A DNA stretch of 64,000 nucleotides, from the NCBI GenBank assembly GCA_963707955.1, contig OY970176.1:1440001-1504000 (forward strand). Reading direction: 5' to 3'. Positions 13,385 to 46,500 of this stretch are shown in pieces. Within the stretch, counting starts at the first letter, position 1. Every line of letters begins with the position of its first letter. Made by a program: the position numbers and the translations under genes. The stretch is from Candidatus Bathyarchaeota archaeon. Its GTDB lineage: Archaea; Thermoproteota; Bathyarchaeia; Bathyarchaeales; Bathycorpusculaceae. Below the pieces are notes generated by a model, which made no database searches, had not been told where the DNA came from, and saw only the letters and a list, made by a program, of their open reading frames with translations.

Positions 13385-14383
13385 TCAAGGTTTTTTGGGA
13401 ACCGCCAAGTCAGATATGTCGACACTGTGTTCGTATATCTGCCTCAGAAAAGAGGCCACCGCGAGGATCTGAGGTACAACGTCAAGCGACTGTGCCTGAG
13501 CCAGTTCTTCAATGTTTGCGAACTCCTTCTCAACCTTGTCCCGCGTGCTCCGCACTTTTTCGGCCAAGTTTATGTTGCCAGAGAGAAAAGCGTTCAAGGC
13601 CTCTTCATGAGCCTCGAAGCAAACCGCCTGAAGGCCCGTGAACAATTTTCCGAGGTTCTTACTTATTTTTAGACCTTCTAGCTCAACGGTCTTCTGCGCT
13701 GCTCGGACGCATTCGTCCCCGATGGCCTCTACCAAGCTGGCGGCCAAGCGGTAATCGAGGCACTCAATGGGGCCCACACCCAGCTTCTCACTGAGACTCG
13801 GGTTCTGTATTATCGTGCGCAAAATGCGGACAAGAAGGAAGTACAGCCTGTTACCCTCATCGTCGCGGGCCATAACACTCTTCGCCAATTGCACGTCTCC
13901 CTCAACAAAGGCGTTGACCACGTCTCGGTGCATCCCCGCGGCTATCGCGTACCCCCGTCGCAGAATCTTTTCAGGAGGAAAACCAGAGGGCTCCAACAAA
14001 CACTGCAGAACAATCCCAGAATGATCTTCCTCAACAATCTCCAACCCAACCAAATGGCTAACAGTGCTTTTCACAGCCTCCCGAACCTCAAAGCCCAAGC
14101 GTTCCCTCCCCTCAACCCGAACAACGTCAAAGCCAAGCAGGTATTTACCTATGATTTCACGGCCCAAGTGGGGCCCTGGCTCCAAGACCGCAGTCCTAGG
14201 TGAGGGCTCCGCACCGTATCTCGCGTCGACGATAAGCTTGCCGTCGGCAGCCTCACTGATGCCAACCACCGCTCCACGCTGCAAACCATTCCGCTCCGCC
14301 CAAGCCTTCGGCAAGCAAACGAAGAAAGTGCCTCCGGGCGTGCGCTGAACCTTGCGCAGATCACTCATCTGTTCCGACCTCAT
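13385..14383 (-). CDS. phoU: Phosphate uptake regulator (AbrB-like N-terminus plus PhoU domains)
   Basis: RKVQRTPGGTFFVCLPKAWA N-terminus; PhoU repeats with YEHSVDISD. Confidence 0.88.
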   Translation of the reverse strand: MRSEQMSDLRKVQRTPGGTFFVCLPKAWAERNGLQRGAVVGISEAADGKLIVDARYGAEPSPRTAVLEPGPHLGREIIGKYLLGFDVVRVEGRERLGFEVREAVKSTVSHLVGLEIVEEDHSGIVLQCLLEPSGFPPEKILRRGYAIAAGMHRDVVNAFVEGDVQLAKSVMARDDEGNRLYFLLVRILRTIIQNPSLSEKLGVGPIECLDYRLAASLVEAIGDECVRAAQKTVELEGLKISKNLGKLFTGLQAVCFEAHEEALNAFLSGNINLAEKVRSTRDKVEKEFANIEELAQAQSLDVVPQILAVASFLRQIYEHSVDISDLAVPKKP

Positions 14384-14914: not shown

Positions 14915-16480
14915 ATGAGCGAACCGGAAAAACTCCAGAAAGCCGTAGAACTCACAATCGCTGCAGGCTACCAGCTGAACAAGGAAGCCTTCGAATTCCT
15001 AAGCATGGTAGCCACAACCGACGACCCAGCGAAAATCATGGTCAAAGCAATCCAGCAGATCGAAAGCCTTGAAGAGAAACCCTTCTTCATAGACCGGTGC
15101 TTCCTGGAAGAGTTGCTCAAAACGCCAGAACGAGCAGAGGGAAACGGCGCCCAGCCGTCAGAAGAACGCCTCCAACAAACTCTAGGGGTGCAAGCGCCGC
15201 AGATAACTGAGGCCAAGACGCCCTTCCGCCCATACTCGAAAGACGTTGAAGCCGACATGAAAGTGATCGAAGACCCAGGCTCAAAAATAAGCTCAGCCGG
15301 GACGATCGAAGACTACCTAGGCTACTTTCAAGATAGGTTCAAACAGCTAGAAAAACTGCTAAGACAAAGGATGGACGTCAAAAGCGCAGCCTCGGTCTTG
15401 GACGCAGTGAAGGCCCCATCAAACACGCGACTCAAGATAATAGCAATGGTCACAGAGAAGAGAGAGTCCAAAGAGAAAACGGTGCTGACCGTTGAGGACC
15501 TCAAGGCAAGCGCCATCGTTCTTGTAACACAGAACGCTCCACAAGACCTCCAGAAAAAGGTGCGAATGCTCCTGCTCGACCAAGTCATCTGCCTCAGCGT
15601 CGTCAAGACCAGAAGCAGCTTGCTCGTTGCCGAAGACATAATCCTACCAGACATTGCTCAGAGACCCCAACACAAAGCAACGGCACCAGTCTACGCAGTC
15701 CTCACATCAGACATGCACGTAGGCAGCACACAGTTCACGAAAGAAGCGTTAAACCGCTTCACGCTGTGGCTGAACGGCAAATACGGCGACGACAGGATGA
15801 AGGACATAGCAAGCCACGTCAAATACGTGCTAATCGCAGGGGACATCGTCGACGGAATCGGCGTCTACCCGAACCAAGCAAAAGAACTCGTAATAAGAGA
15901 CGTGAACAAGCAGTACAAGTTTGCCTCAAAGTACATCGAGCAAATCCCCGACTATGTGGAAGTAATAATCACGCCCGGCAACCACGATGCTCCCCGAAAA
16001 GCCCTACCGCAGCCAGCAATATCCAGCTCCTTCCTAGAAACACTCCAAGAATCGAGAAGGGTCCAATCCCTAGGTAGCCCTTGCACCCTAAGCCTCCACG
16101 GCGTAGAAGTGCTCATGTTCCACGGCCGCAGCCTCGACGACATAATCTCCACCGTCCCAGGCATGAGCCACAGCCACCCCGAAAAAGCTATGCAGTTGCT
16201 ACTCCAGACCCGACACCTAGCACCGCTGTACGGCGGTAAAACACCCCTGTCGCCGGAGAGCAAAGACTTCCTCGTTATCGACCGCGTCCCAGATATCTTC
16301 CATGCTGGGCACGTGCACGCACTCGAATACGGCAACTATCGTGGAGTGTTGATCGTAAACTCAGGCTGTTGGCAAAGGCAGACCGGCTACATGCGCAGGA
16401 ACGGCTTTGTTCCGACACCCGCAAAGGTTCCCGTGGTAAACCTTCAAACCCTAGAGGTCACCGTCATCCCGTTTGACTAA
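14915..16480 (+). CDS. polD1: DNA polymerase D (PolII) small subunit DP1
   Basis: SDMHVGS, AGDIVDGIGVYP, PGNHD, HGRSLDD, FHAGHVH, NSGCWQ phosphoesterase motifs. Confidence 0.95.
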   Translation: MSEPEKLQKAVELTIAAGYQLNKEAFEFLSMVATTDDPAKIMVKAIQQIESLEEKPFFIDRCFLEELLKTPERAEGNGAQPSEERLQQTLGVQAPQITEAKTPFRPYSKDVEADMKVIEDPGSKISSAGTIEDYLGYFQDRFKQLEKLLRQRMDVKSAASVLDAVKAPSNTRLKIIAMVTEKRESKEKTVLTVEDLKASAIVLVTQNAPQDLQKKVRMLLLDQVICLSVVKTRSSLLVAEDIILPDIAQRPQHKATAPVYAVLTSDMHVGSTQFTKEALNRFTLWLNGKYGDDRMKDIASHVKYVLIAGDIVDGIGVYPNQAKELVIRDVNKQYKFASKYIEQIPDYVEVIITPGNHDAPRKALPQPAISSSFLETLQESRRVQSLGSPCTLSLHGVEVLMFHGRSLDDIISTVPGMSHSHPEKAMQLLLQTRHLAPLYGGKTPLSPESKDFLVIDRVPDIFHAGHVHALEYGNYRGVLIVNSGCWQRQTGYMRRNGFVPTPAKVPVVNLQTLEVTVIPFD

Positions 16481-16531
16481 AAACATGAGCAGTTAACCGC
16501 CAGCATCGGGAATACGAGGAGGGCCCAAGCC

Positions 16532-17782
16532 TTAGCTTCTGCCATCGCTGCGCTTCGAGATGCACTGTACTTCATAATCAACCAGACGGCCAAGTCTACT
16601 ATCCTCAGCAAACACATCTCGAATAAGGCTGCGTGCGATCTCAAGCCGTATCTTCTTCGTCCGCCCGTACCTTCCCATGCTAACGACCCTCGCGTTCAAC
16701 AATCCCATCGCGTCGAGCTCATTTATCAACGTGCTCAAACGCCGCTGGGTCAGCGGCGCAACTCCCAACTCCCCGCTGAGCTCGTCGTAGACCTCAGAGA
16801 TCTCACCCGTAATGGCGCCCCGAGCATCTCTCTTGCCCAAGTGATAGATGCTCAATGTTACGAGCTTCGAATGCAAAGTCAGGTTGCTCAAAGCTTCAAC
16901 AACGCGGTTGTGCTCAATGTGCTTCTCAGCCTCGCGAACATGCTCTTCAGACACTACGGTTAGCCCTTTTCGCTCAGCTACCTCGCCGGCAACGCGCAAA
17001 AGGTCTAAAGCTCGACGCGCATCTCCATGCTCTGCGGCAGCTAGAGCAGCGCAGAGGCCAAGTGCGGCATCGGATAATGCTTTCTGAGTGAAGGCTGCCT
17101 GTGCACGTTCAGCGAGTATGTTTCTCAACTCACCTGCGTCGTAAGGCCTAAAAACAATCTCCTCCTCGCTCAGTGAGCTTAGGACACGCGGATCTAGGAA
17201 TTCTTTGAAGCGCAGGTCGTTAGATATCCCAACAAGCGCTATTTTGCTATGCCTCAGAACCTCGTTCATTCTAGTTAACTCGTACAGAAAAGTGTCCCCA
17301 CGCATCTTTGTCAACGCGTCGGCTTCATCCAGGACCACCAAGAAAATCATGCCCGAAAGGTCCAGACCCGCAGTGAACCTGTCATAGACTTCACCAACGG
17401 ACAATCCTGTGAATGGAACCTGAACACCTAAACTCTGGCACATACTTGCAAAGACCCTGTACTCGGACCCAGCTACCCTGCAGTTGACGTAGCAGAACTT
17501 GAGGGGTGCGTTAAATTCTTTAGCCTTGAACTCAAGGCGAGTCAGAACATACTTGACGACAGCGGTTTTTCCGGTCCCTGTGTTTCCATAGATAAAAATG
17601 TTGGAGCTTCTTGCACCTTTAAGTAAGGGAGCAACAATTTCTCCCAATTGCCTGATCTGCCCTTCTCGGTGAGGAAGCTTGTCTGGGAGATAATCATGTC
17701 GGAGCACCTCTCGATCCTTGAAGACTGTGGCGTTGCTTGCGAAGTTCTCGAAGAGTTCATCAAGAATATCAGCATTACTCAT
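16532..17782 (-). CDS. cdc6: Orc1/Cdc6 replication initiator
   Basis: LPHRE, GNTGTGKT Walker A, VLDE Walker B, GDARRALDLL, C-terminal wHTH with GRYGRT. Confidence 0.96.
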   Translation of the reverse strand: MSNADILDELFENFASNATVFKDREVLRHDYLPDKLPHREGQIRQLGEIVAPLLKGARSSNIFIYGNTGTGKTAVVKYVLTRLEFKAKEFNAPLKFCYVNCRVAGSEYRVFASMCQSLGVQVPFTGLSVGEVYDRFTAGLDLSGMIFLVVLDEADALTKMRGDTFLYELTRMNEVLRHSKIALVGISNDLRFKEFLDPRVLSSLSEEEIVFRPYDAGELRNILAERAQAAFTQKALSDAALGLCAALAAAEHGDARRALDLLRVAGEVAERKGLTVVSEEHVREAEKHIEHNRVVEALSNLTLHSKLVTLSIYHLGKRDARGAITGEISEVYDELSGELGVAPLTQRRLSTLINELDAMGLLNARVVSMGRYGRTKKIRLEIARSLIRDVFAEDSRLGRLVDYEVQCISKRSDGRS

Positions 17783-17799
17783 TCAATCAACTCACATAG

Positions 17800-18400
17800 T
17801 CCAGTAGTAACAAGCGTTCTTCCTGTGGAAAACATAAGCCCTGCCGTACAGAAATCTAAATATTAAACACGATAATCCTAAAGAAGGAATACAACTTAAA
17901 CAGTAAACACCCTTCAAAATGAGCAGACACACCCCCCCGCTTCTGGTGGAAACGTTTAGCCTTTGAATTAAATAATGCTGGTCTGTTTTAGGAGAAGTTG
18001 TACTCCTCTAGGTAATTGGGTACTAAGATTATATTTGTTCTCACTAAGAATTTTAGACATTACTAAAAAACATTTTAAACTTAGTCACAGGCAATATAGG
18101 GCTTATAACCTTTCCAATGGAAATAAAGGGGTGTGTCTTCTTTCCAACCCACTATTTATGGTGCGGACTATCAATCAGATCCGTTTTATTATGTTATAGC
18201 CTCCAAGGGCGGATTCTATAGAATCGCCGCCCGACAATGGTGGGCACATTTTTGCCGACTTTCTATTCACTTTCCGTGAAGTCCTTATGAAGTTTATTTG
18301 CCAATGTCGTTTCCACATCCTCCTATTTCCTACAATTGAGTCCTCTATGCTTCTTTTCTGTGAATAGCCCACCCCTACTCTTCCACTGGAAAACGCGTTT
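17800..18400. other. Replication origin (oriC) with ORB elements and AT-rich unwinding region
   Basis: ORBs with G-strings at 17926-17953 (-), 18111-18137 (+, TTTCCAATGGAAATAAAGGGGTGTGTC) and 18368-18394 (-, TTCCAGTGGAAGAGTAGGGG); mini-ORB at 17820-17831; AT-rich 17960-18110; directly upstream of cdc6. Confidence 0.9.
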
Positions 18401-18584
18401 CGTACCGAGTCTATTCTCATTTTGAGCTTCTGAAAACCTGTTATTCGCGCAACGTCAGTATAGCTGGAAATATCGCTGCTTTATCGGTTTAGAGGCCTTT
18501 CCTTTCCCTTTTGGAGCACAGAGTTCACCGTAACACCTATAGCTTGTGAACTGTGAAATTGTGAACACAGCTGCTAGGTGTAAA

Positions 18585-19031
18585 ATGCCAATGCCGGCAA
18601 CAAAAATGCGCGTCGAACTTTTCGACAGCGAGGGCAACCGTTATTCGATAAGCTTTGAAGGACAGGTCACACGTGATAAGGCGGTGCGGTTGCTCGACTT
18701 GGTGGAACTCCTCGGTGGGGTGCCTGGGGGTGGGGGAAATCCGGATTTCAATCCCACGTTGACTAAAGAACCGTCAAAGTATGACAAGGTTAGAGCGATA
18801 GTTCAAAAGCACTTCCCTTTGGTTTGGTTCTGCTCTAAAGAGGTACAAACTGTGTTCGAGCAGGAGTTCAGAGAGCCAATAGGCCTGAGTACTGTGGCAA
18901 CGTACCTCGCAAGGATGGCAGGAAAGAGGATCCTTATAAAAGCAGGGCCATCCAACAGCTTGAAGTATAAAGCGGCAACAAGTATGCCACAGGTCACCGC
19001 GAAAGTCACGGACATTGCAATGAAACAGTGA
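18585..19031 (+). CDS. Origin-adjacent hypothetical protein with C-terminal winged-helix-like domain
   Basis: N-terminal beta domain, Gly linker, then WFCSKEV...IGLSTVATYLARM...GPSNSLKY. Confidence 0.75.
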   Translation: MPMPATKMRVELFDSEGNRYSISFEGQVTRDKAVRLLDLVELLGGVPGGGGNPDFNPTLTKEPSKYDKVRAIVQKHFPLVWFCSKEVQTVFEQEFREPIGLSTVATYLARMAGKRILIKAGPSNSLKYKAATSMPQVTAKVTDIAMKQ

Positions 19032-19068
19032 ACTCTCACGGCCGCCAGTTTTCATTCAGACAGGCAAG

Positions 19069-19782
19069 CTAGGCAGCTTGATCCTCTGGTTTCCTCAGAA
19101 GTTTCTCCATCTCCTTCTTGGAGCTGTACTTGAACGGGATCTTACTGGTCTCCCTCTCCAAGTATCCTTCTTCGTAGAGCTTCTTCATCAACCTTGCCGT
19201 GTGTTCCCTACTAAGTCTTACTTTCTCCTTTATCTGTGGCGCGGTCTTTGGCCCCTCTGATGCGAGCATCTCCAACACAGCAACTTCTGTTCCCGTCAAC
19301 TGTGCCAACGCCTTGTCTCTCCTTATTGGTATCGCCGCTTCAAGACTGGTTTCAGGAACGGCTGAGAATTGCCTAGCCTGCTGTTCCAAGTTCACAATTT
19401 TTGCTGTGACTGCTTCTTGTGATGCTACTATGTCACGTGTTTTGTTTTCAACTTCAGCTAGCCGGACTGCCAACGTCTCTCTGCCTTCAGAATCGGCACT
19501 GACCTTCGCCTCCGCGGTGCTCATCCTCTTCTCTACATCTCCCATCATGCCGAGTATTCTGTCGCCTTTCGAATCCACAGCCCCAACCTTGTAAGCAAGT
19601 GTCTCCAACTTCTCGCCTTCGCGCCTGAACTGCCTATTGAAGCTCAAAATAATGTCCTCGACCGCTCCTCGTGCTTTTTCATATTCCTTTTTGGATTGGC
19701 GCAACCTACGGTAATATTCCACCGCCGAAACTGCGGTGGTTGCGAGCAGACAACTTACGAGGATGAACAGTAGATAATCCAA
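19069..19782 (-). CDS. Membrane-anchored coiled-coil protein with C-terminal winged-helix DNA-binding domain
   Basis: Hydrophobic N-terminus (YLLFILVSCLLATTAVSAV), long helical heptad-like middle, wHTH LTGTEVAVLEML...SREHTARLMKKLYEEGYLER. Confidence 0.85.
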   Translation of the reverse strand: MDYLLFILVSCLLATTAVSAVEYYRRLRQSKKEYEKARGAVEDIILSFNRQFRREGEKLETLAYKVGAVDSKGDRILGMMGDVEKRMSTAEAKVSADSEGRETLAVRLAEVENKTRDIVASQEAVTAKIVNLEQQARQFSAVPETSLEAAIPIRRDKALAQLTGTEVAVLEMLASEGPKTAPQIKEKVRLSREHTARLMKKLYEEGYLERETSKIPFKYSSKKEMEKLLRKPEDQAA

Positions 19783-19794
19783 TAGAAATCCGCC

Positions 19795-20081
19795 TGTGAT
19801 TCAAACGTGATTATGCGTGACTCAAGCACGTTGCATCACACATCACATCTTACCCATGCGGCATTTAAGCCTTATTGTGTGTATCATGGTGGCGAGCAGA
19901 CATGACATCACATGTCACACTTTCAAGTTAAATTAACATGTTGGGTGGCTTGTGAATGCTCTCTAGAAAGAGGGCTGCTGTGGGTTCTTATCCAGATTTG
20001 CGGCGTGATTCTGTCTTCTGCGAAAAGCTATAGTTGCGGGGCATAAGTGCCGTATTGTGGGGCGTGATTTGTGACGTCACA
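19795..20081. repeat. Cluster of YGTGAY/RTCACR hexamers (array A)
   Basis: 11 copies counted in ~290 bp, at 19795, 19806, 19816, 19835, 19842, 19907, 19914, 20004, 20063, 20070 and 20076. Confidence 0.85.
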
Positions 20082-20557
20082 TAAGCCTCGTCGAACGACT
20101 AGAGAGCTCTTTGAGGCTTGTTTCGAGCTGTTGGCGGAGTAAACCTATGATCTTCAGTCGCTCACTGATGCTTGTGCCTTCGCTGATCGCGTTCTTGTAC
20201 CCATCTAGGTATGTGTGCAGTTGGTTCGCGACCTCAAGGTATGGGTCGAGAGACTGTGGTCTCAAAGAGTCCCAAGTACCCCAGCAGTATTACCGTGTAG
20301 ATGGATTTTGTGACATTTTGTTTGGCCTGCCTTAGGGTCCGGTTGAACGCTCCGCGACTGATTTTGGCCTTAGTTAGCCTTAATCGGGCCTTTTCGTCGT
20401 ATTTCAGCGATTTGCCTGCGATATTATCGGACAATATGTCTATGAGGAGTGTTTCGAGCTGGGTTTTTGTTAAATGGCTGTTGTCAGCCATTATTTTGGC
20501 AATTGGGTCGTTGATTGAGCTTTCTAGCAATGAATGAACGCTATCTCTTAGCTTCAA
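20077..20557 (-). CDS. HTH-like hypothetical protein; frameshift near 20255
   Basis: ORF SHLTKTQLETLL...ISRGAFNRTLRQAKQNV...LLGYLGLFE joins ORF SLDPYLEVANQL...; probable assembly indel. Confidence 0.7.
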
Positions 20558-21133
20558 GTCTCGTCGCTCCTGAGATGATGCAAATGAATACATTTTTGTA
20601 TACAGGGTCGGCTCTTAAGGGTATCGAATTCCGAAGAACCTTGCTTCAAGTCTGGAGGCGCAAGAGCATTGTGCCGGTAGAATCAGAAAATGGTTAGAAG
20701 GAGCAAGCGGTTTCCAAGTTTGACTCTCCCAAGAGGCTTAAACTCATAACGCTTTGTGTACTGTGCCGCTTTTTTGCTTTGGCCCAAAAAACGCCGAGCG
20801 CTTCATTAACCTGGGCGTGTGCAGACCCGATTTGCGCTCTCTGGAGGGATCCTGGTGTGGGCAGTGAGCTGCAAGACAAGCCTATGGAGTCGTAGGAGGC
20901 TAATAGTGGAGAGAGCCTATTGGGTTACGCGCCTAAGTGTGGTCGAAACTGTGACGTGCTGGTGGCAGTTGATGAGGCAGAAGTATTTTCGCTGATTTGA
21001 CCGTCTTTTCGGAGGTGGGTAGTGTGATGCTGCTTCCCAACGTTAGGTTCGTTGTGTAAGCACCCAGTACTCTTGGCTGTGAAGATTTTAGGCAGCATTC
21101 CTTTGTTAGAAAATACGGCTTGAAGCAATGGTT

Positions 21134-21278
21134 TGTGATGTGACACCACCCGTCACGCTTGAATCACGTGTGATGACCCCCAATTTCCAAACAGCTCGGC
21201 TGCTACAGTTCTTTCCGTCAATGACGCTATTCCCTTGGGAGCGCGGCGGTTGAGCGTGACATGATTGTGATTTGTGAT
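21134..21278. repeat. Cluster of YGTGAY/RTCACR hexamers (array B)
   Basis: 8 copies in 145 bp, at 21134, 21139, 21152, 21163, 21169, 21255, 21266 and 21273; extra copies at 20950 and 21023. Confidence 0.85.
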
Positions 21279-21378
21279 CAGTGCACGAGATGATAGTTCG
21301 TAATGATATCTGGTTGATTGTCTGGCGACTTTCCAAGAATGCGTAAACGGTTCTTGGCGGTTAACTTGTTTCTCAGGC

Positions 21379-22212
21379 CTACAATTCTTCTGCGCGCTTC
21401 TTTAATTTGTCAAACAGCTCTGGACGTAGATCTTTCAACGTAGGAACGAAGGTTTCAAGAGGTCTTATGTCGGCGTAGTCCACCTCGCACATCACAAAAT
21501 CTTCTTCGTCATACTTTGCTTGAGCAAGAACTCTCCCGTTTGGACCTACGAGCCTGCTGCCGCCCCAAAACTGCAAGCCGTCCTCGACTCCGACCAGGTT
21601 TACAAAGGCCAGAAAGGTCGTGTTTTCGACTGCGCGTGCAGCCGTGAGTATTTCAAAGAATGATCGGCGGACTGCTGGTGAGGCTGAAATGCACACAGTC
21701 AGTTGGGCTCCTTCGAGTCGTGCGAGTCGAGTCACTTCTGGGAAGTAGATGTCGTAGCATATGAGCAAACCTATCTTTCCAAGGTCGGTGTCGAACGCCG
21801 GGGCTTCGTGGCCTGGGCGGAAATATCTTTTTTCCTCAAAGACGCTGTGAGTTGGGAGGTACATCTTGCGGTATTTGCCGATGAAGCCCTTGGGACCCAC
21901 AAGCACTGCGGTGTTGTGAAGGGTAGCCTGTGTCTTCTTGCTCTTTTCAGGCATGCCAAAAACGACGTGTATACCTGCCTTCCTAGCAATTCTCTCGATG
22001 ATTCTCGTCGATGGGCCGGGGATCTCTTCAGCCAATTCGTAGATCTGGTCTCTTACAACGTAGCCCGTGAGCGAGAGTTCTGGCAATATCACCAGGGCTG
22101 CTCCTTTCTCCTCGGCTCTAGCAACGGCGCCTTCAATCTTCTTCAGGTTCTGTTCCTTGTCTCCAGGTTTGCAGCTAATCTGCGCTAAGGCAACCATAAA
22201 TCTATCCTTCAT
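21379..22212 (-). CDS. Carbon-nitrogen hydrolase (nitrilase superfamily), probable glutaminase partner of NadE
   Basis: LPELSLTGY, YRK, ICYD catalytic E-K-C triad. Confidence 0.9.
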   Translation of the reverse strand: MKDRFMVALAQISCKPGDKEQNLKKIEGAVARAEEKGAALVILPELSLTGYVVRDQIYELAEEIPGPSTRIIERIARKAGIHVVFGMPEKSKKTQATLHNTAVLVGPKGFIGKYRKMYLPTHSVFEEKRYFRPGHEAPAFDTDLGKIGLLICYDIYFPEVTRLARLEGAQLTVCISASPAVRRSFFEILTAARAVENTTFLAFVNLVGVEDGLQFWGGSRLVGPNGRVLAQAKYDEEDFVMCEVDYADIRPLETFVPTLKDLRPELFDKLKKRAEEL

Positions 22213-22234
22213 GAACTATCCTCCTCCGTTCAGT

Positions 22235-23113
22235 CTAACAGGGGCCGCGTGGAAACCTGAAGTCAGTACCTATCGTTCGATATTCAAGCTTTGCTGTCAG
22301 TAACATGCGCCTCTTGTGCTCTGCTGAAAGCCACCTGCGCTCTATTCTGATGACTGCGCTTTTTTCAATCTGCAGCTTATCCGCTATTTCCTCTGGCTTC
22401 AGGAAATGTTCCAGTCCGTATAAGATAAGGTCAAGCTGTTCATACTTTATGCCCAGTTCGTCCTCGGCCAGCTGGTTTGGCCAGAGAGCAGGGGAAGAGG
22501 GTTTTTCGACGACTTCTCTTGGGATGCCTATATGCTCGGCTACTTTTCGAACTTGGGTCTTGTACAGATCCATTATCGGCGATATGTCCGCCGCAACATC
22601 TCCCCATTTCGTGAAGTAGCCCATCATGGTTTCTGACTTATCTGAGGTTCCGCAGACGAGCATACTCAGCCTGTTCGCGTAGTAGTATACGTAAATCATG
22701 CGTGTCCGCGCCTTTATGTTGCCCTTGCTCAACTTGTCTGAAGGGTCGTATATCCTCATTGAACTGTAAAACGCCTCTAACGGAGCTGTGATGTCGATTG
22801 CTTCTGTTTTGAAATGGAATTTCTTAGCAACGAGTTTCGCATGTTCGATGTCTTGGGAGCTTCGCGTTTCTTTCTCGGGTAGCATGAGTCCTAGGACTTT
22901 GTCTCCGCCTATGGCTCTAGCCGATATCGCAGCTACGGTGCAGCTGTCTATTCCACCGGATACTCCCAAGACTATGCCCTTAACGCCCGTGGTCTCCACA
23001 TAGTCCTTGATGAACCGTTGGATCCTGTTCTCCGTTTCTGGCAGATTTAGATCAAGAACTGCAGGCGTCAACTCCAAAGGGGTGCGCTCCCATGGGTGTA
23101 TGGTTGTAGGCAA
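22235..23113 (-). CDS. nadE: NAD+ synthetase
   Basis: GVSGGIDS, GNIKARTRM, GYFTKWGD, SEHKRR-like motifs; start uncertain. Confidence 0.93.
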   Translation of the reverse strand: MPTTIHPWERTPLELTPAVLDLNLPETENRIQRFIKDYVETTGVKGIVLGVSGGIDSCTVAAISARAIGGDKVLGLMLPEKETRSSQDIEHAKLVAKKFHFKTEAIDITAPLEAFYSSMRIYDPSDKLSKGNIKARTRMIYVYYYANRLSMLVCGTSDKSETMMGYFTKWGDVAADISPIMDLYKTQVRKVAEHIGIPREVVEKPSSPALWPNQLAEDELGIKYEQLDLILYGLEHFLKPEEIADKLQIEKSAVIRIERRWLSAEHKRRMLLTAKLEYRTIGTDFRFPRGPC

Positions 23114-23173
23114 CTATTTAAGGACAAACATAAATATGGATGTCTGACGTTTCCAGCAGAGAAGGACCCGGAT

Positions 23174-23437
23174 ATGGGTAGAAGAAGGAAAAAGGTTGTA
23201 CGAATCCCTAGGAAACATCTTCCAAGACTGTTCCCTTGCCCCAGGTGTGGGAAGGAAACGGTGAGGGTTGAGATTCTTCGTGAGGAAGGATGCGCAGTCG
23301 TTGGATGCGGTAGCTGTGGTCTCAAGGAGCGGTTCCCAGTTAAGCCTGCTCAGGCTGAGGTCGACGTTTACTGCATGTTCACCGATAAGACGTATGGCCA
23401 GTCTCGAAGGCCCTCTGCTGTGATCAAGGGTGCCTGA
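23174..23437 (+). CDS. elf1: Transcription elongation factor Elf1
   Basis: MGRRRKK...FPCPRC...CGSC...VDVYC. Confidence 0.88.
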   Translation: MGRRRKKVVRIPRKHLPRLFPCPRCGKETVRVEILREEGCAVVGCGSCGLKERFPVKPAQAEVDVYCMFTDKTYGQSRRPSAVIKGA

Positions 23438-23451
23438 TCAGGTCGGTCTGT

Positions 23452-24204
23452 ATGGAAGGTAACGTTGAAAAGTATCTTCTTGAAAAGATCGCGGTCGAGG
23501 GTTCCATTCACATAACGCTTATAGATCCTGAAAGGGTGACTCCGCCCCAGGCTTCGAAGATCGCGGGTAAAGCGAGAGCATGCGAGACTTCGGCCATTAT
23601 GATCGGTGGGTCGACGTTCGTGGCTGCAGCTCATCTAGATGATGTTGTGAAGATGGTCAAGCGTGCTGTGAAGATTCCGATAATCCTTTTCCCCAACAAT
23701 GTTACTGGTATAAGCCGTTACGCAGATGCTATATGGTTTATGTCGCTTCTGAACTCGGTGGACCCGTACTTTCTAATGGGGGCTCAGATCTTGGGGGCTC
23801 CTCTTGTAAAAAGGTACGGTTTGGAACCTCTCCCGCTTGGCTACGTAATCGTTGGTGAGGGCGGCACAGCTGGCATTGTTGGTAAGGCTATTCCGATCCC
23901 GTACGACAAGCCTGAGCTAGTGGCGGCCCACGCCTTAGCAGGCCAGTACCTGGGCATGCGCTTCATCTACTTGGAAGGCGGGTCGGGTGCCAAGAATCCA
24001 GTTCCTTCTGAGATGATCCGCGCTGTCAAGCATTACGTTGATGTACCCCTGGTTGTTGGGGGTGGCATAAGATCCCGCGAGCAAGCGTTAACCGCGGCGT
24101 CTGCGGGCGCAGACATAATCGTCACAGGCAACCTCGTTGAGGAGACAGGCATCAAGCACAAGGTTTCGGAGATCATCGAAGGCATAAGACGCGGCAGGAC
24201 GTGA
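23452..24204 (+). CDS. Geranylgeranylglyceryl phosphate synthase
   Basis: TLIDP, IMIGGS, ILFP, FMSLLNS, YLEGGSGA, VGGGIR. Confidence 0.93.
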   Translation: MEGNVEKYLLEKIAVEGSIHITLIDPERVTPPQASKIAGKARACETSAIMIGGSTFVAAAHLDDVVKMVKRAVKIPIILFPNNVTGISRYADAIWFMSLLNSVDPYFLMGAQILGAPLVKRYGLEPLPLGYVIVGEGGTAGIVGKAIPIPYDKPELVAAHALAGQYLGMRFIYLEGGSGAKNPVPSEMIRAVKHYVDVPLVVGGGIRSREQALTAASAGADIIVTGNLVEETGIKHKVSEIIEGIRRGRT

Positions 24205-24350
24205 AAGGCCGTTGACGGCTCTTAAACCTGCTTCAATGCCCTGAAAACTTTCCGCCAGCGAAGACGTCCCCGCTGTTTAACCATTTTGAACCGCAACGCA
24301 TCAAGCATGAATGCGCTTGGATGGCCCATTAGTCTAGCCTCGGCTTAACC

Positions 24351-24396
24351 TTCCCTGTTTTGTGTTTTGCCTCGCCTAACACGCCTACCCTCTAGG
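24351..24396 (-). repeat. Degenerate remnant of the 14.6/62.2 kb repeat family
   Basis: TCCCTGTTTTGTGTTTTGCCTCGCCTAAC...CCCTCTAGG aligns with the conserved end TCCCTGTATTCGTGTTTCGGCCTCGTCTA...CCCCCTAGG. Confidence 0.45.
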
Positions 24397-24738
24397 TTTT
24401 TCCTGCGGCAGATACCGTTAGCGACTCTTAGTAGGACACTTGCAGAGCCTTGTCACTGGTCAGGAAACCACTTTCAAAATGAGAGTCTGAGACGCACGCT
24501 ACCTACAACGTCCAAGCTACAGAGACTACGCTGAGAAAAGAGGTAAGACTGCGAGAGAAGCGACCAAAGAGCAACCAGCCTCGCGCTAGGAGTGAGGTAA
24601 CCAGCAGTTTGTTTGTGTAGAATTCGCACGGAGTGGAAACGCTCAACGATTTGACTTTTTGACTTGTTCCTGTCAGAGAACAGAAATAAGCTTGTTTCAT
24701 GCACAAAGGTCTTGCGAGTGGGAGACTTGGGCGAAAAG

Positions 24739-27700
24739 ATGAGCGCAGCTTACCGCCAATATGCTGAGGCTCTTGAAAGTGGACTGACCCAACTCTGCGA
24801 ATTGAGCAAGAAGGCTAGGGAGAAGGGGCTTGACCCTTCGCTTAAACCTGAATGCAGGATCGCTAAGGACCTGGCCGACCTCGTCGAGGGGCTCGTGGGC
24901 CCGAAAGGAGTTGCTGACAGCATAAGGGAGCTGAGTTCTAGGCTTTCGAGGGAAGAGCTGGCGTTCAAAGTGACCGAAGAAATAGTCCACGGCAAGTTCG
25001 GACACATGGAACCAGAAGCCGCTGCAGAACAAGCGATTCGAACTGCGCTGGCGATTTTCACGGAAGGTTTGACGGCTGCGCCAATACAGGGAGTAGCACA
25101 TGTGAAGATCAAAACAAATAGCGACCGGACACGTTACCTTGCTATATACTTTGCAGGTCCTATAAGGTCAGCAGGCGGAACAGACCAAGCGTTAACGCTG
25201 GTTGTTGGTGACTTCGTACGGCGCCTCCTCGGACTTGACCGCTACAAGCCCACGGAGGAAGAAACGTCACGTTTCATTACAGAACTCAGAACCTACGAAC
25301 GCTCCTCAGGAATGCGCTTCCAGTATCACATTCCTGACGAAGAGTTGAGAAAGGCCCTTGAGTGGTTGCCAGTTGAGGTGACGGGCACGGAGTCTGACCC
25401 GATTGAAGTGTCCATGTTCCGTAACCTCCCGCGGGTAGAAACAAACCGCGTCAGGGGCGGAGCGCTCAGAGTCGTAAACGACGGCATCGTCGGACGAGCC
25501 CAGAAAGTTCTTACAATCATCGAAAAACTCGAGTTTCAAGGATGGGACTGGCTTAGCGACCTCCACAGAAAATCCGAGAAAAAGTCCTCCGGGTTCATGG
25601 ACGACGTCATTGCCGGCCGCCCCGTGTTCTCTTTCCCCTCAAGACGTGGAGGCTTCCGCCTAAGATACGGCAGAGCAAGAAACACAGGCCTAGCAGCCGT
25701 GGGCATCCATCCAGCAACCATGCTCGTGTTAGACGGTTTCCTCGCAGGTGGAACACAACTCCGGATGGAACTCCCTGGAAAAGGCGGCATCGTGGTCCCG
25801 GTCGACACCATCGAGGGCCCAGTAGTGCGACTGAACGACGGGTCGGTTATCCGAGTGTCAGTGGACGACTTCAACGATGCAAAAGACCGAATTGAGAAGA
25901 TACTCTTCCTCGGAGACATTCTCGTCAGTTTTGGGGACTTCCTCTACAACAGCAGGTTTCTAGCGCCTTCGGGCTACGTCGAGGAGTGGTGGGCTGAAGA
26001 CCTGCGAAAGAAAGTTGCAGAAAAGTTTGATGGCAACGTTGAAAGGGTTTCTGAAACTGTGGGTATTCAGCCCGAAAGACTGAAGAGTCTCTTAGCAAAC
26101 TTTTTCGTCAGTAAGCCCAGCCTCTCTGAAGCCGTTGCATTGTCAACAGAAACGCGTGTTGCGTTACACCCAGCTTTCACGTTCTTCTGGTCAAGCCTTT
26201 CCTCAGTCGAGCAGCTTAAACAGCTGAGAACATGGCTTCTCGCGTCTCAAGTGCAAACTGAAGGTTCTGTCGTTCGAAAGATTGTGGGCGCAATGGATTC
26301 AGACGTTAAGTGTGCCTTGGAAATGATATGCCTTCCTCATAAAGTCTTAAACGACAAGATAATCATCGAGGGAGAAGACGCTGGTGCCTTCGCTCTCTGC
26401 TTAGGCTCCGGGGCTCCATGTGACCTGATTTTTTCATCTGCAAAAACCGTTCTGGAAGCCGTCAATTCTCTGTCAAGTGTGCAGGTCAAGGATAAGGCCC
26501 CCACGCTTGTAGGCGCAAGAATGGGAAGACCTGAAAAGGCAAAAAGGCGCGAGATGAAGCCGCTTGTGCACGTTCTTTTCCCGGTCGGTCTAGCAGGAGG
26601 TTCGCAGAGAGACCTCGTTGAAGCAGCAAAGCATGGGCCGATCTTTGTGGAAATCATCAAACGAAAGTGCCCAGAATGTGGGACCTTCACTTCTCGCGTC
26701 AAATGCCCCGCATGCGGTTCGGAAACGGCTCCTGAGAAGAGTTGCCCACGGTGTGGAAAAAGCCTGAAACAAGATGAATGCCCTACTTGCAAGACCTCTG
26801 CGATAAGATATCAGAAGCAGGTCGTCAATTTCAGAGAGGCGCTTGAGAGTGCATGTTGTGACTTGTCTGTTTCGATGCCACGGATCTTGAAGGGAGTGAA
26901 GGGGCTGACAAATCAAACCAAGACGCCTGAAATACTCGAAAAAGGCGTTCTGCGGTCAAAGCATGACCTCTCAGTTTACAAGGATGGAACGATACGGTTT
27001 GACACCACTAATGCCCCTCTGACACATTTCAAGCCTTCTGAAGTTGAAGTTTCAGCCCAGACACTTAGGGAGCTTGGTTACACCTGTGACGTGAAAGGCG
27101 CGCCATTGGCGGATGCAAGTCAAGTGTGCGAACTCAAGCTTCAGGATGTCGTTATTCCTGTGAAAGCTGCAGAATACTTTGTGACGGTCGCAAGTTTTCT
27201 AGACGAACTTCTATCCAAGGTTTATGGACTTCCGCCATACTACAATGCCCGACGAACCGAAGACTTGGTTGGGCACTTCGTCATTGGTCTAGCTCCCCAC
27301 ACCTGCGTAGGAATCTTGGGACGCATCGTAGGCTTCACGAACCTGAACCTCTGCTATGCACACCCCATCTGGCACTCAGCGAAGAGGAGAGACTGTGACG
27401 GCGATGAAGACACTCTGATGCTTGCCCTCGACACGCTCCTCAACTTCTCACGCGAGTACCTGCCTGCACAGATCGGCGGGATAATGGATGCTCCGCTGCT
27501 GCTCATTCCAGTTGTGAACCCGAATGAGGTGCAGAGGCAGGCCCACGACTTTGACGTTGCCGATTCCTATCCGCTTGAGTTTTTTGAAAAAACATGGGAA
27601 AAGGTTGAAGCTAGACAAGTCAGTTCAATGATAGACCTCGTGGGTTACCGTCTTGGCACTGAGGCACAGTTTGAGGGCTTCAACTTTACGACACCCGTGT

Positions 27701-28146
27701 CCAACGTTAACATGGGCAACCCTGAAAGTTCCTATAAAAGTCTCAAAGCGATGACAGATAAGCTTGAAGGCCAACTTAAATTGGCAGAGAAGATCGTGGC
27801 CGTAGATGCAGACAAAGTGGCCCTGAAGGTCTTGACGAAGCATTTCATGCGAGACATCGCGGGTAACCTGCGGGCTTTTTCAACACAGGGTTTCAGGTGC
27901 AAGTCATGTAGCAAACGCTTCCGGCGTCTGCCCCTTCGGGGCAAATGCCCATCGTGCGGTGGAGAATTAACATTGACCGTCTATCGCGGCGGCATTGAAA
28001 AGTACTTAGATGCAGCGCAGCATCTGATTGACAAGTATGACTTGCCTAAGTACTATTCACAGAGGATTTCGCTTGTGAAAGAGGAGATCAGTGCGCTGTT
28101 TGATAGTGGAAAGCCCAAGCAGATCAGTCTAACAGACTTCGCTTGA
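24739..28146 (+). CDS. polD2: DNA polymerase D (PolII) large subunit DP2, no intein evident
   Basis: AGPIRSAGGT, FRLRYGRARNTG, RMGRPEK, Zn ribbons, KRRDCDGDED catalytic motif. Confidence 0.97.
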   Translation: MSAAYRQYAEALESGLTQLCELSKKAREKGLDPSLKPECRIAKDLADLVEGLVGPKGVADSIRELSSRLSREELAFKVTEEIVHGKFGHMEPEAAAEQAIRTALAIFTEGLTAAPIQGVAHVKIKTNSDRTRYLAIYFAGPIRSAGGTDQALTLVVGDFVRRLLGLDRYKPTEEETSRFITELRTYERSSGMRFQYHIPDEELRKALEWLPVEVTGTESDPIEVSMFRNLPRVETNRVRGGALRVVNDGIVGRAQKVLTIIEKLEFQGWDWLSDLHRKSEKKSSGFMDDVIAGRPVFSFPSRRGGFRLRYGRARNTGLAAVGIHPATMLVLDGFLAGGTQLRMELPGKGGIVVPVDTIEGPVVRLNDGSVIRVSVDDFNDAKDRIEKILFLGDILVSFGDFLYNSRFLAPSGYVEEWWAEDLRKKVAEKFDGNVERVSETVGIQPERLKSLLANFFVSKPSLSEAVALSTETRVALHPAFTFFWSSLSSVEQLKQLRTWLLASQVQTEGSVVRKIVGAMDSDVKCALEMICLPHKVLNDKIIIEGEDAGAFALCLGSGAPCDLIFSSAKTVLEAVNSLSSVQVKDKAPTLVGARMGRPEKAKRREMKPLVHVLFPVGLAGGSQRDLVEAAKHGPIFVEIIKRKCPECGTFTSRVKCPACGSETAPEKSCPRCGKSLKQDECPTCKTSAIRYQKQVVNFREALESACCDLSVSMPRILKGVKGLTNQTKTPEILEKGVLRSKHDLSVYKDGTIRFDTTNAPLTHFKPSEVEVSAQTLRELGYTCDVKGAPLADASQVCELKLQDVVIPVKAAEYFVTVASFLDELLSKVYGLPPYYNARRTEDLVGHFVIGLAPHTCVGILGRIVGFTNLNLCYAHPIWHSAKRRDCDGDEDTLMLALDTLLNFSREYLPAQIGGIMDAPLLLIPVVNPNEVQRQAHDFDVADSYPLEFFEKTWEKVEARQVSSMIDLVGYRLGTEAQFEGFNFTTPVSNVNMGNPESSYKSLKAMTDKLEGQLKLAEKIVAVDADKVALKVLTKHFMRDIAGNLRAFSTQGFRCKSCSKRFRRLPLRGKCPSCGGELTLTVYRGGIEKYLDAAQHLIDKYDLPKYYSQRISLVKEEISALFDSGKPKQISLTDFA

Positions 28147-45165: not shown

Positions 45166-46500
45166 ATGTCTTTGGAACGCTTGGGCTCCTCGCTCTATGA
45201 CGCTCTCAAGAAAGTGTTCAGAGCTTCGGTCGTAGATGAAGCTACTGTTAAAGAGCTTGTTCGAGACATCCAAAGAGCACTGCTTCAGGCTGACGTAAAC
45301 GTCCAACTTGTCCTTGGCATCTCTAAACGAATAGAAGAAAGGGCTTTGAAGGAAAAGGTTCCTCCAGGCATTGCGAGACGCGAACACGTCATAAAAGTTG
45401 TCTATGAAGAGTTGACGCGCTTCCTAGGCGATAAGCCGGTGCCGTTGAAGGTTGAGCCTGGAAAAAGAAAACTAGTGATGCTCGTGGGCATCCAAGGTTC
45501 AGGAAAAACAACCGCGGCAGCCAAGCTTGCGAGATATTTTCAGAAGAGGGGGCTGAAGCCAGCTCTGATCTGCGGGGACACTTTTCGACCTGGAGCCTAT
45601 GCACAGCTCCAACAACTCGCGAACAGGATAAACGTGCCCTCGTACGGCGATGTGAAAGCAAAGGATTCTATCAAAGTAGTGAATGAGGGCCTAAAGCAGT
45701 TCAGCGAGAAGGACGTGATCATCGTTGACACATCCGGTCGTCACAAGGAGGAACGAGAACTGATTAGAGAGATGAAGATGCTTGAGAAGAGTATCAAGCC
45801 AGATGAAGTCATGCTTGTGATTGACGGAACGATAGGTCAGCAGGCATTAGCTCAGGCGAAAGCTTTCAACGAGGCAACGCCCATAGGCTCTATCATGGTC
45901 ACCAAACTGGACGGGTCTGCTAGGGGCGGTGGAGCTCTCTCCGCCGTTGCTGCAACGGGGGCCCCTATAAAATTCGTCGGAACCGGCGAAAAAACCGAGG
46001 ATATAGAGGCTTTTGTGCCTTCCCGTTTTGTTGGTAGACTCTTGGGAATGGGTGACTTGGAGACTCTTCTGGACAAAGTGCGTGAAGCGGAGATATCTGT
46101 TCCAGAAAAGAAGGCCAAGGCCATCCTGAGCGGCAAATTCACGCTGACGGACATGTATGAACAATTCGAAGCTTTGAAGGGCATGGGCACCTTCAAGAAA
46201 CTCTTGAAGATGATTCCGGGAATGTCTTACAACATTCCTGATGACATGGTCAACATGGCTGAAGGGCGTCTGGAAAAGTGGCGCGTCATGATTCAGTCGA
46301 TGACGCCAGGGGAGAAGGATAACCCAAAGATTTTTAATGCTTCGAGAATGAAGCGTGTGGCAAAGGGTTCAGGCACTAACGAAAAAGAGGTAAAAGAGCT
46401 TCTGAAGCAGTATGTAATGATGCGCCGAATGCTTAAGACGATGCGACGTAGAAAGAAGTTTCCATTCTTTGGAAAGGACCTGCCCGTCGACATGAAGTAG
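45166..46500 (+). CDS. srp54: Signal recognition particle protein SRP54
   Basis: GIQGSGKTT, DTSGR, TKLDGSARGGG, Met-rich M domain. Confidence 0.97.
   Translation: MSLERLGSSLYDALKKVFRASVVDEATVKELVRDIQRALLQADVNVQLVLGISKRIEERALKEKVPPGIARREHVIKVVYEELTRFLGDKPVPLKVEPGKRKLVMLVGIQGSGKTTAAAKLARYFQKRGLKPALICGDTFRPGAYAQLQQLANRINVPSYGDVKAKDSIKVVNEGLKQFSEKDVIIVDTSGRHKEERELIREMKMLEKSIKPDEVMLVIDGTIGQQALAQAKAFNEATPIGSIMVTKLDGSARGGGALSAVAATGAPIKFVGTGEKTEDIEAFVPSRFVGRLLGMGDLETLLDKVREAEISVPEKKAKAILSGKFTLTDMYEQFEALKGMGTFKKLLKMIPGMSYNIPDDMVNMAEGRLEKWRVMIQSMTPGEKDNPKIFNASRMKRVAKGSGTNEKEVKELLKQYVMMRRMLKTMRRRKKFPFFGKDLPVDMK

Follow-up and report, generated by a model that had tools for sequence, protein, structure and literature searches.

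The sequence studied here is a window of 64,000 nucleotides from a Candidatus Bathyarchaeota archaeon, corresponding to positions 1440001-1504000 of a genome that forms a single contig of 2,346,764 bp. Three uncharacterised genes of this window, which we call P1, P2 and P3, lie beside a candidate origin of replication (oriC) and are accompanied by two dense arrays of the short motif TGTGAY. The module starts at a gene encoding the Orc1/Cdc6 initiator (16532-17782, minus strand), identified by Pfam matches to Cdc6_C (4.8e-25), Cdc6_lid (4.2e-24) and AAA domains. An 802-bp spacer (17783-18584), the candidate oriC, separates cdc6 from P1 (18585-19031, plus strand), which encodes a winged helix-turn-helix (wHTH) protein. 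P2 (19069-19782, minus strand) encodes a protein combining a transmembrane segment, a coiled coil and a wHTH domain, and P3 (20077-20557, minus strand) an all-helical protein of 159 amino acids (aa). Array 1 occupies the 294-bp spacer between P2 and P3 (19783-20081 region) with 11 TGTGAY sites across the P2 upstream region; array 2 (21134-21278) contributes 8 sites, 0.55-0.7 kb beyond the P3 start, in a gene-free stretch of 785 bp (20594-21378).

The candidate oriC contains boxes resembling the origin recognition box (ORB) at 17820, 17941, 18111/18112 and 18381, together with inverted 35-nt arms (17922-17956 and 18107-18141) that flank 150 bp with a GC content of 31%. The ORB pattern TTCYNNTGGAAA has 28 matches genome-wide, and their sole cluster is the one at 17820-18381. 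This single cluster and the inverted arms around an AT-rich 150 bp make the cdc6-P1 spacer a good computational oriC. An earlier sequence-only reading of the window had placed the three genes directly beside an ORB-containing origin, and the position of the cluster ahead of P1 bears this out. The cumulative GC skew showed a monotonic drift and did not locate the origin.

The same reading had counted 11 YGTGAY sites in array 1 and 8 in array 2, in both orientations, and had listed further copies in the adjacent genes. A recount reproduced these numbers exactly (11 sites in 19795-20081, 8 in 21134-21278, and in-gene copies at 18666, 18672, 19005, 19405, 19418, 19432 and 20309). Over the whole window, YGTGAY occurs 115 times against 115.7 in shuffled sequences; there is no overall enrichment, and the signal therefore lies in the clustering of the sites. 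The genome as a whole holds 3770 copies (1.6 per kb), from which about 0.46 and 0.23 copies are expected in the two stretches. The predicted density peak beside oriC was recovered genome-wide: the arrays are the two densest 300-bp windows of the genome (11 and 9 sites) and no other window exceeds 6. Composite sites are likewise rare outside the locus, which carries 4 of the 17 genome-wide occurrences of GTGAYNNGTGAY and one of the two of GTGAYRTCAC.

An unbiased k-mer count across 79 related loci showed that ATCACA (31x) and GTCACA (24x) are enriched, while GTGAA and GTGAG showed no enrichment in the arrays, which defines the motif as TGTGAY; the base preceding the core is T in 77% of 849 sites. 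Read rightward from the P2 start, array 1 opens with three direct sites at spacings of 11 and 10, followed by a pair at 7 bp. A conserved ATTTAAG..TTAT box (19863-19875) lies between this pair and another of the same spacing; beyond a variable spacer, GTGATttGTGAC-GTCAC abuts the P3 stop. Among related Bathyarchaeia loci, sites in the same orientation stand 7 bp apart in 236 cases, 11 bp in 70 and 10 bp in 41; where sites converge, they form the abutting palindrome GTGAYRTCAC in 80 cases and lie 17-18 bp apart in 57. Such stereotyped spacing would fit protein docking. The longest run at exact 7-bp steps is 2, both in the window and in 78 of the 79 loci. Part of array 2 repeats array 1 in inverted form (19796-19810 versus 21153-21167, 93% complementary). 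The two arrays are about 1.3 kb apart, bracket P3, lie 2-3.5 kb from the ORB cluster and are contained within 1.5 kb. A reading of the GTGAT words as C/D-box RNA was dropped because the variable spacer is unconserved and the words occur on both strands; an Rfam scan of 17000-22000 returned only a chance-level microRNA row (E 0.7) and no known RNA family.

Conservation of the module was analysed in 30 fetched loci at the order level and in a further class-level set of 80 Bathyarchaeia loci; P2 itself gave one match each in 34 of 41 relatives. P2 and P3 are adjacent in all 30 order-level loci, P1 is present in 29 (the other reaches a contig end) and cdc6 in 27 (three are cut on that side), all 27 with the order Cdc6-P1-P2-P3. 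The P2-P3 spacer contains 6-11 hexamers in 29 of the 30 loci, with the same architecture site for site. Of the further loci, 79 include the downstream flank, and every one of them shows 8 or more pentamers in the 420 nt following P3; each of the 75 that include the upstream flank shows at least 6 between -1000 and -300. The densest 300 bp of each locus of about 12 kb falls directly after P3 in 72 of 80 loci, and about 1-1.2 kb upstream in 7. Distances read from coordinate tables placed P2 at most 4 kb from cdc6 in 35 of 39 Bathyarchaeia genomes; three of the others have the two genes on different contigs and one has no cdc6 match. Judged from these gene orders, the succession Orc1/Cdc6, ORB origin, P1, P2, P3 is kept throughout the class Bathyarchaeia.

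A phylum sample of 301 genomes extended the reach of the module. The P3 family was detected in 140 genomes and the P2 wHTH in 169, always as a single match. One family has P2 in 44 of 44 sampled genomes and archaeal amoA in the 5 of 5 that were tested, which identifies it as a family of ammonia oxidisers. Loci of these organisms show the order PolD-small, Cdc6, P1, P2, P3, GGGPS, PolD-large, with Cdc6 adjacent in the 2 of 2 checked, and 10-13 GTGAY per 300 bp in 7 of 7. Their P3-P2 spacer measures only about 120 bp, with the sites extending into coding sequence, and both the anchor and the recognition helix described below are retained in their P2. Outside Bathyarchaeia, the distance from cdc6 to P2 is at most about 5.5 kb in 8 genomes. 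Families with short forms of P2 (125-155 aa) have the P3 and P2 genes overlapping or directly adjoining. Several families well represented by complete genomes yielded neither P2 nor P3 (0 of 20 and 0 of 14, for example). The synteny anticipated by the sequence-only reading was thus recovered, with its arrays, in Bathyarchaeia and ammonia oxidisers, but not in several families in which P2 is 30-195 kb away from cdc6.

The stretch containing array 2 carries the remains of a gene. A class I/II aminotransferase relic (20594-21378, plus strand), divergent from P3, is intact in many relatives and is represented in the window by traces only, such as an NFPNNPTG coding relic just after 21174. The aminotransferase gene lies between P3 and a CN-hydrolase gene in 16 of the 30 order-level loci. 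Array 2 is located in relatives within its reading frame, over conserved segments on either side of NxPNNPTG. In all 16 aminotransferase genes, the clustering of array 2 was reached by at most 1% of 200 synonymous codon shuffles, and three aminotransferase paralogues elsewhere in the window genome have 0-1 sites in the same segment. The gene is decayed or gone, with array 2 retained, in the genus of the window and in loci L023 and L048; in four more (L025, L027, L028 and L040) the aminotransferase match contains internal stops. The aminotransferase gene therefore seems to decay repeatedly while the embedded array stays. Both the excess over shuffles and the survival of gene decay argue that the DNA word is under selection of its own, and the comparative evidence supports the arrays as a selected, unique and origin-adjacent feature.

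P2 is predicted to be anchored in the membrane once, by its N-terminus (about residues 3-21), to continue as a coiled coil and to carry a C-terminal wHTH of the MarR/TrmB type (about residues 160-220). Its Pfam matches are all above cut-off: HTH_27 with 31.3 bits (cut-off 22.2), MarR with 30.6 (24.6) and TrmB with 27.3 (25.6). The alignment is limited to a core of about 55 residues (profile positions 1-52 of 59); the remainder of P2 is anchor and coiled coil, and the canonical MarR dimerisation helices were not seen. The middle part matches coiled-coil proteins. By hydropathy, each of 31 P2 orthologues carries a single hydrophobic 19-mer, which begins no later than residue six. The tripartite architecture first assigned to this protein held for each of its parts. 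The anchor is preceded by only 0-5 residues and followed by a positively charged flank (median 5 K/R versus 2 D/E in the 31 orthologues), which by the positive-inside rule implies a cytoplasmic DNA-binding domain; the membrane topology and localisation of P2 are predictions from hydropathy. The anchor is also found in the short P2 forms of other families. The recognition helix, (S/T)REHxxRxxKxLY, is invariant across 33 P2 sequences including those of ammonia oxidisers. None of the 3737 P2 homologues on record is meaningfully named. A profile of the P2 wHTH retrieved MecI/BlaI, MarR and Lrp types from all PDB sequences and no RacA at E<=1, and PADLOC and PHROGs gave only weak generic wHTH matches. 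Prediction of a complex between P2 (residues 24-237) and P3 scored 0.00 in two runs; made without controls, it is uninformative.

The model of P1 (predicted local distance difference test score 71) comprises an N-terminal beta-beta-alpha domain, a disordered linker and a C-terminal wHTH. Foldseek matched it to wHTH repressors with a probability of about 1 and E of about 1e-2. Penicillinase_R is matched by 27 of 29 P1 orthologues at E<=1 (best 4.2e-5), the window P1 itself reaching 16.1 bits, below the cut-off of 22.6; the wHTH proposed earlier for P1 is weak by Pfam and clear in the model. A putative promoter element of P1 (18524-18565, plus strand) combines TTCACC, a TATA-like CTATAGC and three GTGAA words at 7-8 bp steps. 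By eye, it recurs in full or in part upstream of P1 in 29 related loci. This element shares the GTGA core of the arrays but differs in the fifth base, and ammonia oxidisers have GTTAACAAA repeats in its place.

One extra base at 20253 breaks the P3 reading frame of the window into two. Contigs of all 3 sequencing runs that cover the site lack this base, and one of these runs probably supplied the assembly; a fourth has no coverage there. Three relatives are in frame at the matching site. The frameshift can therefore be put down to an error of assembly, and P3 is a single intact gene of 159 aa with a TTG start at 20557, as the treatment of 20077-20557 as a single gene had presumed; the extra base will cause P3 to be miscalled in the annotation of this genome. 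The all-helical protein has an N-terminal domain with a helix-turn-helix (HTH) signature like that of sigma region 4, which is a lead only, and a C-terminal helical hairpin. No consistent Pfam family was found in 30 of 30 members, and Foldseek against the PDB gave nothing at E<=0.001. A VIA-wide structure comparison recovered only the C-terminal hairpin, with Z up to 8.7, within the common helical range, and barely tested the N-terminal domain; Atlas returned only sub-threshold sigma70_r4, ParB (TM 0.34) and resolvase rows. The earlier description of P3 as HTH-like stands in that it is a predicted DNA binder with an HTH signature; the leads stay below threshold and no Pfam family backs them. 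Pfam gave no ParB family for P1, P2 or P3 and no ribbon-helix-helix family for P1 or P3.

P3 also appears to have a promoter motif of its own. The putative promoter (20587-20619, minus strand) contains the dyad ATACA-N5-TGTAT (20588-20602) and a TATA-like CTTAAG (20614-20619), and the conserved dyad before P3 reads GTATACAAAAnTGTATyC. GTATAC was marked before P3 in 30 of 31 loci. A clear ATACA-N4-TGTAT dyad is present in 7 of 11 loci, including L142 and L144, which have no P2; it is more widely spaced in L136, partial in L137 and L140, and absent from L135. The P3 dyad is retained where P2 is missing and also in ammonia oxidisers. TACA/TGTA dyads are used by repressors of the BlaI/MecI/CopY type, which would fit P1. 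The core of the P3 dyad, TATACAAAAC, is similar to the ucm word of an oligonucleotide given in the methods passage of PMC12141716.

The distribution of P2 and of the arrays was compared across 70 loci containing P3. Where the P2 wHTH is encoded (56 loci), the maximum number of GTGAY per 300 bp has a median of 10 (range 2-13); in the 14 loci without P2, which belong to 4 families, the median maximum is 3 (range 1-5), and 10 of these still carry P1. Both P2 and the arrays are gone, with P1 and P3 kept, in 10 loci of 3 families. Five genomes with P2-less loci gave no P2 genome-wide with a full-length profile, and a domain profile gave a weak match in one. The recognition region of P3 differs between Bathyarchaeia and ammonia oxidisers, and the motif is unchanged. 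The co-occurrence of P2 with the arrays, the invariant P2 helix and the separate promoter words of P1 and P3 suggest, as the simplest reading, that TGTGAY belongs to P2 and that the module comprises three predicted DNA binders with three private motifs. The earlier proposal that the arrays are binding sites for one of the three proteins is accordingly favoured by the comparative evidence, and P2 is most likely the binder.

We propose, with somewhat less than even confidence, that P2 is the protein bound to the arrays, acts as its own repressor and keeps DNA near the origin at the membrane, the tether being the selected function. P2 dimers or oligomers would occupy about 20 TGTGAY sites in two clusters bracketing P3. 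Array 1 covers the ATTTAAG..TTAT box and about 85 bp down to the P2 start codon. If this box is a TATA element, as it appears to be, one 7-bp pair would lie at the start site and three sites in the leader; this is the geometry of a repressor, and P2 would be repressed through the sites that cover its likely start region and leader. Since the arrays bracket P3 as partly inverted copies, a loop between them is suggested, which would perhaps repress P3 too. With P2 in the membrane, occupancy of the arrays would bring DNA lying 2-3.5 kb from oriC to the membrane. Such a tether could serve origin positioning, segregation or re-initiation control, like RicO, RocS and RacA in Firmicutes. P1 and P3 would belong to the same island as DNA binders in their own right, each regulating itself. 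Attachment of oriC to the cell membrane is an idea of the 1963 replicon model. A broader version of the proposal, in which a motor-less, centromere-like tether between oriC and the membrane extends from Bathyarchaeia to ammonia oxidisers, arose independently of RicO/RacA, is tuned by P1 and P3 and has a NurA-HerA pair attached in many Bathyarchaeia, is doubtful.

Several observations weigh against the tether. The sites overlap the likely P2 promoter, so that autoregulation explains much of the pattern and could alone maintain array 1; auxiliary operators inside neighbouring genes are found in bacterial operons and could account for array 2. Direct repeats of 7 bp are unusual for a dimeric winged helix. 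A search with PF13614 and PF01656 found no ParA at the locus, and no motor ATPase is linked to it; ParA/MinD-like matches to these families lie elsewhere in the genome, at 328766, 1933291, 1946233, 2044024 and other places. The sole ParA-type match within the window is a sub-threshold CbiA at 45496-45819, in agreement with the sequence-only reading, in which no ParA-like gene was visible. Linkage to cdc6 has exceptions: about 30 kb separate it from P2 in 5 genomes belonging to one family, and 50-195 kb in 6 genomes from three families. In distant or short-P2 families the arrays shrink to 1-2 palindromes of the GTGATATCAC type just before P2. Divergent P2-like proteins occur without arrays in two families (E 1e-7 to 1e-9). 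As relatives are not independent, the co-occurrence of P2 and arrays rests on about four losses.

A purely regulatory circuit is a serious alternative, possible rather than probable. P2 would then be a membrane-tethered transcription factor, the arrays would be operators for P2 and P3, and any tethering of DNA would be incidental; adjacency to oriC would reflect gene dosage, cell-cycle timing or history. The span of array 1 over a TATA-like box down to the P2 start is in line with this, as are the private promoter motifs at P1 and P3, which resemble those of autoregulated repressors, the 1-2 palindromes directly before P2 in short-form lineages and the families in which P2 is distant from cdc6. 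A simple operator would, however, need neither about 20 sites nor a second array 0.55-0.7 kb away that is kept in a foreign reading frame and after its decay. Moreover, the 0-5 residues before the anchor leave P2 without an extracytoplasmic sensor, the genome has no other target clusters, and adjacency to cdc6 is kept in Bathyarchaeia and ammonia oxidisers despite the genes being on different strands.

Binding of the arrays by P1, by P3 or by an unlinked factor, with some other task for P2, is unlikely. P1 and P3 are also predicted DNA binders, and the 7-bp register recalls arrays of small ribbon-helix-helix dimers. However, the 10 loci of 3 families described above keep P1 and P3 and have lost P2 together with the arrays, P1 and P3 have different conserved motifs at their own promoters, and the motif stays constant between Bathyarchaeia and ammonia oxidisers where the P3 recognition region varies.

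A role of the arrays as replication-control DNA acting with Orc1/Cdc6, whether as auxiliary elements of the origin, as a second origin or as a sink for the initiator or the helicase, is quite improbable. The arrays are close to the ORB origin, Bathyarchaeia have an AT-richer variable spacer of about 150-250 bp between inverted site pairs, and Sulfolobales have, according to passages of PMC12141716, an accessory motif specific to the origin (ucm) together with its binding protein (UBP). Yet the motif is unrelated to ORB and the cdc6-P1 spacer holds 0-3 sites and no cluster (27 loci and the window); the ammonia-oxidiser P3-P2 spacer is short and its sites enter coding sequence; and the arrays vanish with P2, not with cdc6. 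Very improbable, and largely refuted, is a relic of an integrated plasmid or virus partition cassette with the arrays as terminal inverted repeats, a notion prompted by their bracketing P3 as partial inverted copies, because the module is single-copy at a fixed chromosomal position across the phylum, tblastn against 72,556 plasmid records gave no match for P2 or P3, and PADLOC and PHROGs gave no phage or defence family for P1 or P3 and only weak generic winged-helix matches for P2.

The closest working analogue of the proposed tether is the RicO/RocS/RacA group, of which P2 does not appear to be a member. Passages of a recent preprint (bioRxiv 10.64898/2026.03.06.710092) describe RicO-ricS of Staphylococcus aureus and RacA-ram of Bacillus subtilis as systems in which an HTH, a coiled coil and a membrane element bridge an origin motif to the membrane, report experimental demonstration of the anchoring role of RicO, and place RacA ram sites within coding sequences. 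P2 likewise joins a DNA-binding domain, a coiled coil and a membrane element next to an origin-proximal motif, and array 2 lies inside a coding sequence in relatives, as ram sites do in those passages. In P2, however, the order of domains is reversed and the anchor is a true transmembrane segment instead of an amphipathic helix or DivIVA; the sites form two clusters within at most 1.5 kb, as opposed to the 9-25 sites over 600-700 kb given in the same passages. P2 is also archaeal and of MecI/BlaI-MarR type, with no RacA at E<=1, whose group has an N-terminal MerR-like HTH; RicO and RocS were compared by description only.

The closest DNA architecture is that of the omega-parS system. Omega, a ribbon-helix-helix ParB of plasmid pSM19035, binds parS heptads of the form WATCACW and needs at least 4 contiguous heptads, according to passages of PMC9499535. 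The arrays have the same core word (RTCACA against WATCACW), the 7-bp register and both orientations, and they overlap the probable promoters of their own genes, just as one element serves as operator and centromere in omega/parS as described there. They differ in having 7-bp pairs only (longest run 2 in 78 of 79 loci), and the locus has no ribbon-helix-helix protein and no ParA partner. TrmB regulators of Thermococcales, which recognise the glycolytic motif TATCAC-N5-GTGATA, are soluble, sugar-sensing proteins acting at many target promoters. They resemble P2 in being archaeal winged-helix proteins of TrmB/MarR type with TCAC/GTGA half-sites at promoters; P2 differs by its membrane anchor, the lack of a ligand domain and its single array locus.

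For Sulfolobales, passages of PMC12141716 place the ucm motif inside the unwinding element and describe UBP as an abundant, soluble protein of the nucleoid that has more than 300 sites and occurs only in Sulfolobales and Desulfurococcales; the authors ask there about analogues in other archaeal lineages. P2 would resemble UBP as a predicted lineage-specific archaeal binder of a conserved non-ORB motif tied to the origin. Unlike ucm, the TGTGAY arrays lie outside the ORB-flanked element and are unique in the genome, and the profiles of P1, P2 and P3 gave no sequence match to UBP among solved structures. The role of SegAB of Sulfolobus is unclear according to passages of a review of archaeal segregation (PMC7617429). 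Clustered repeat sites near the origin and a predicted site-specific binder are shared with SegAB and ParABS, as is a proposed role in organising or partitioning the chromosome; the module differs in having no linked ParA-type ATPase and no ParB features, SegB itself not having been searched for.

The sequence-only reading had taken the system to be undescribed. A literature search found no paper on the P1-P2-P3/array module, and the passages of PMC7617429 on archaeal segregation make no mention of it, but the same logic exists in bacteria with RicO, RocS and RacA. From the sequence comparisons, the module would be an origin-proximal tether or operator array, a variant of an existing type of system. 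The positioning and segregation of archaeal chromosomes are largely unknown, especially in lineages without a studied partition system. Here a single-copy module linked to cdc6 and oriC in Bathyarchaeia and ammonia oxidisers brings together an anchor, a DNA-binding domain and a unique cluster of sites. As ammonia oxidisers carry the module and some of them are cultured, the tether idea is directly testable. Even if the role were only regulatory, a site array kept inside the reading frame of a neighbour and after the death of that gene would be unusual, as would a set of three private operator motifs beside an origin; the in-frame array and the private motifs are useful landmarks for annotating archaeal origins.

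The surroundings of the module are those of a replication island. Upstream of cdc6 lie a PhoU-like gene (13385-14383, minus strand) and the gene for the PolD small subunit (14915-16480, plus strand), and downstream of the gene-free stretch are genes for CN-hydrolase, NadE, an Spt4-like protein, GGGP synthase and the PolD large subunit, all identified from open reading frames and Pfam. The order PolD-small, Cdc6, module, GGGP synthase, PolD-large (14915-28146 in the window) is the same in Bathyarchaeia and in ammonia oxidisers (loci L136 and L150). A second, distant Orc1/Cdc6 paralogue (28% identity) is encoded outside the window, at genome positions 691328-692455; it could mark a second origin, and the genome-wide scan found no TGTGAY cluster near it.

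Two further observations concern genes lying within the module. A divergent pair of NurA-like and HerA-like genes occupies the interval between P1 and P2 in 13 of the 30 order-level loci, of which L029 retains relics only. The pair at 6554-9137 of L026 encodes a NurA-like protein of 351 aa without a Pfam match and a HerA-like protein of 519 aa matching DUF87 (3.4e-11), for which PADLOC and PHROGs returned only HerA rows. It was found neither at the locus of the window genome nor in 20 loci from other classes. An extra reading frame separates P2 from P3 in three families outside Bathyarchaeia (L137, L138 and L140). By eye, its product looks like an HTH and CBS-domain regulator, and a group of GTGACnnnnnnnnATCACatGTGAC sites lies at the end of this frame in L137 and L140.

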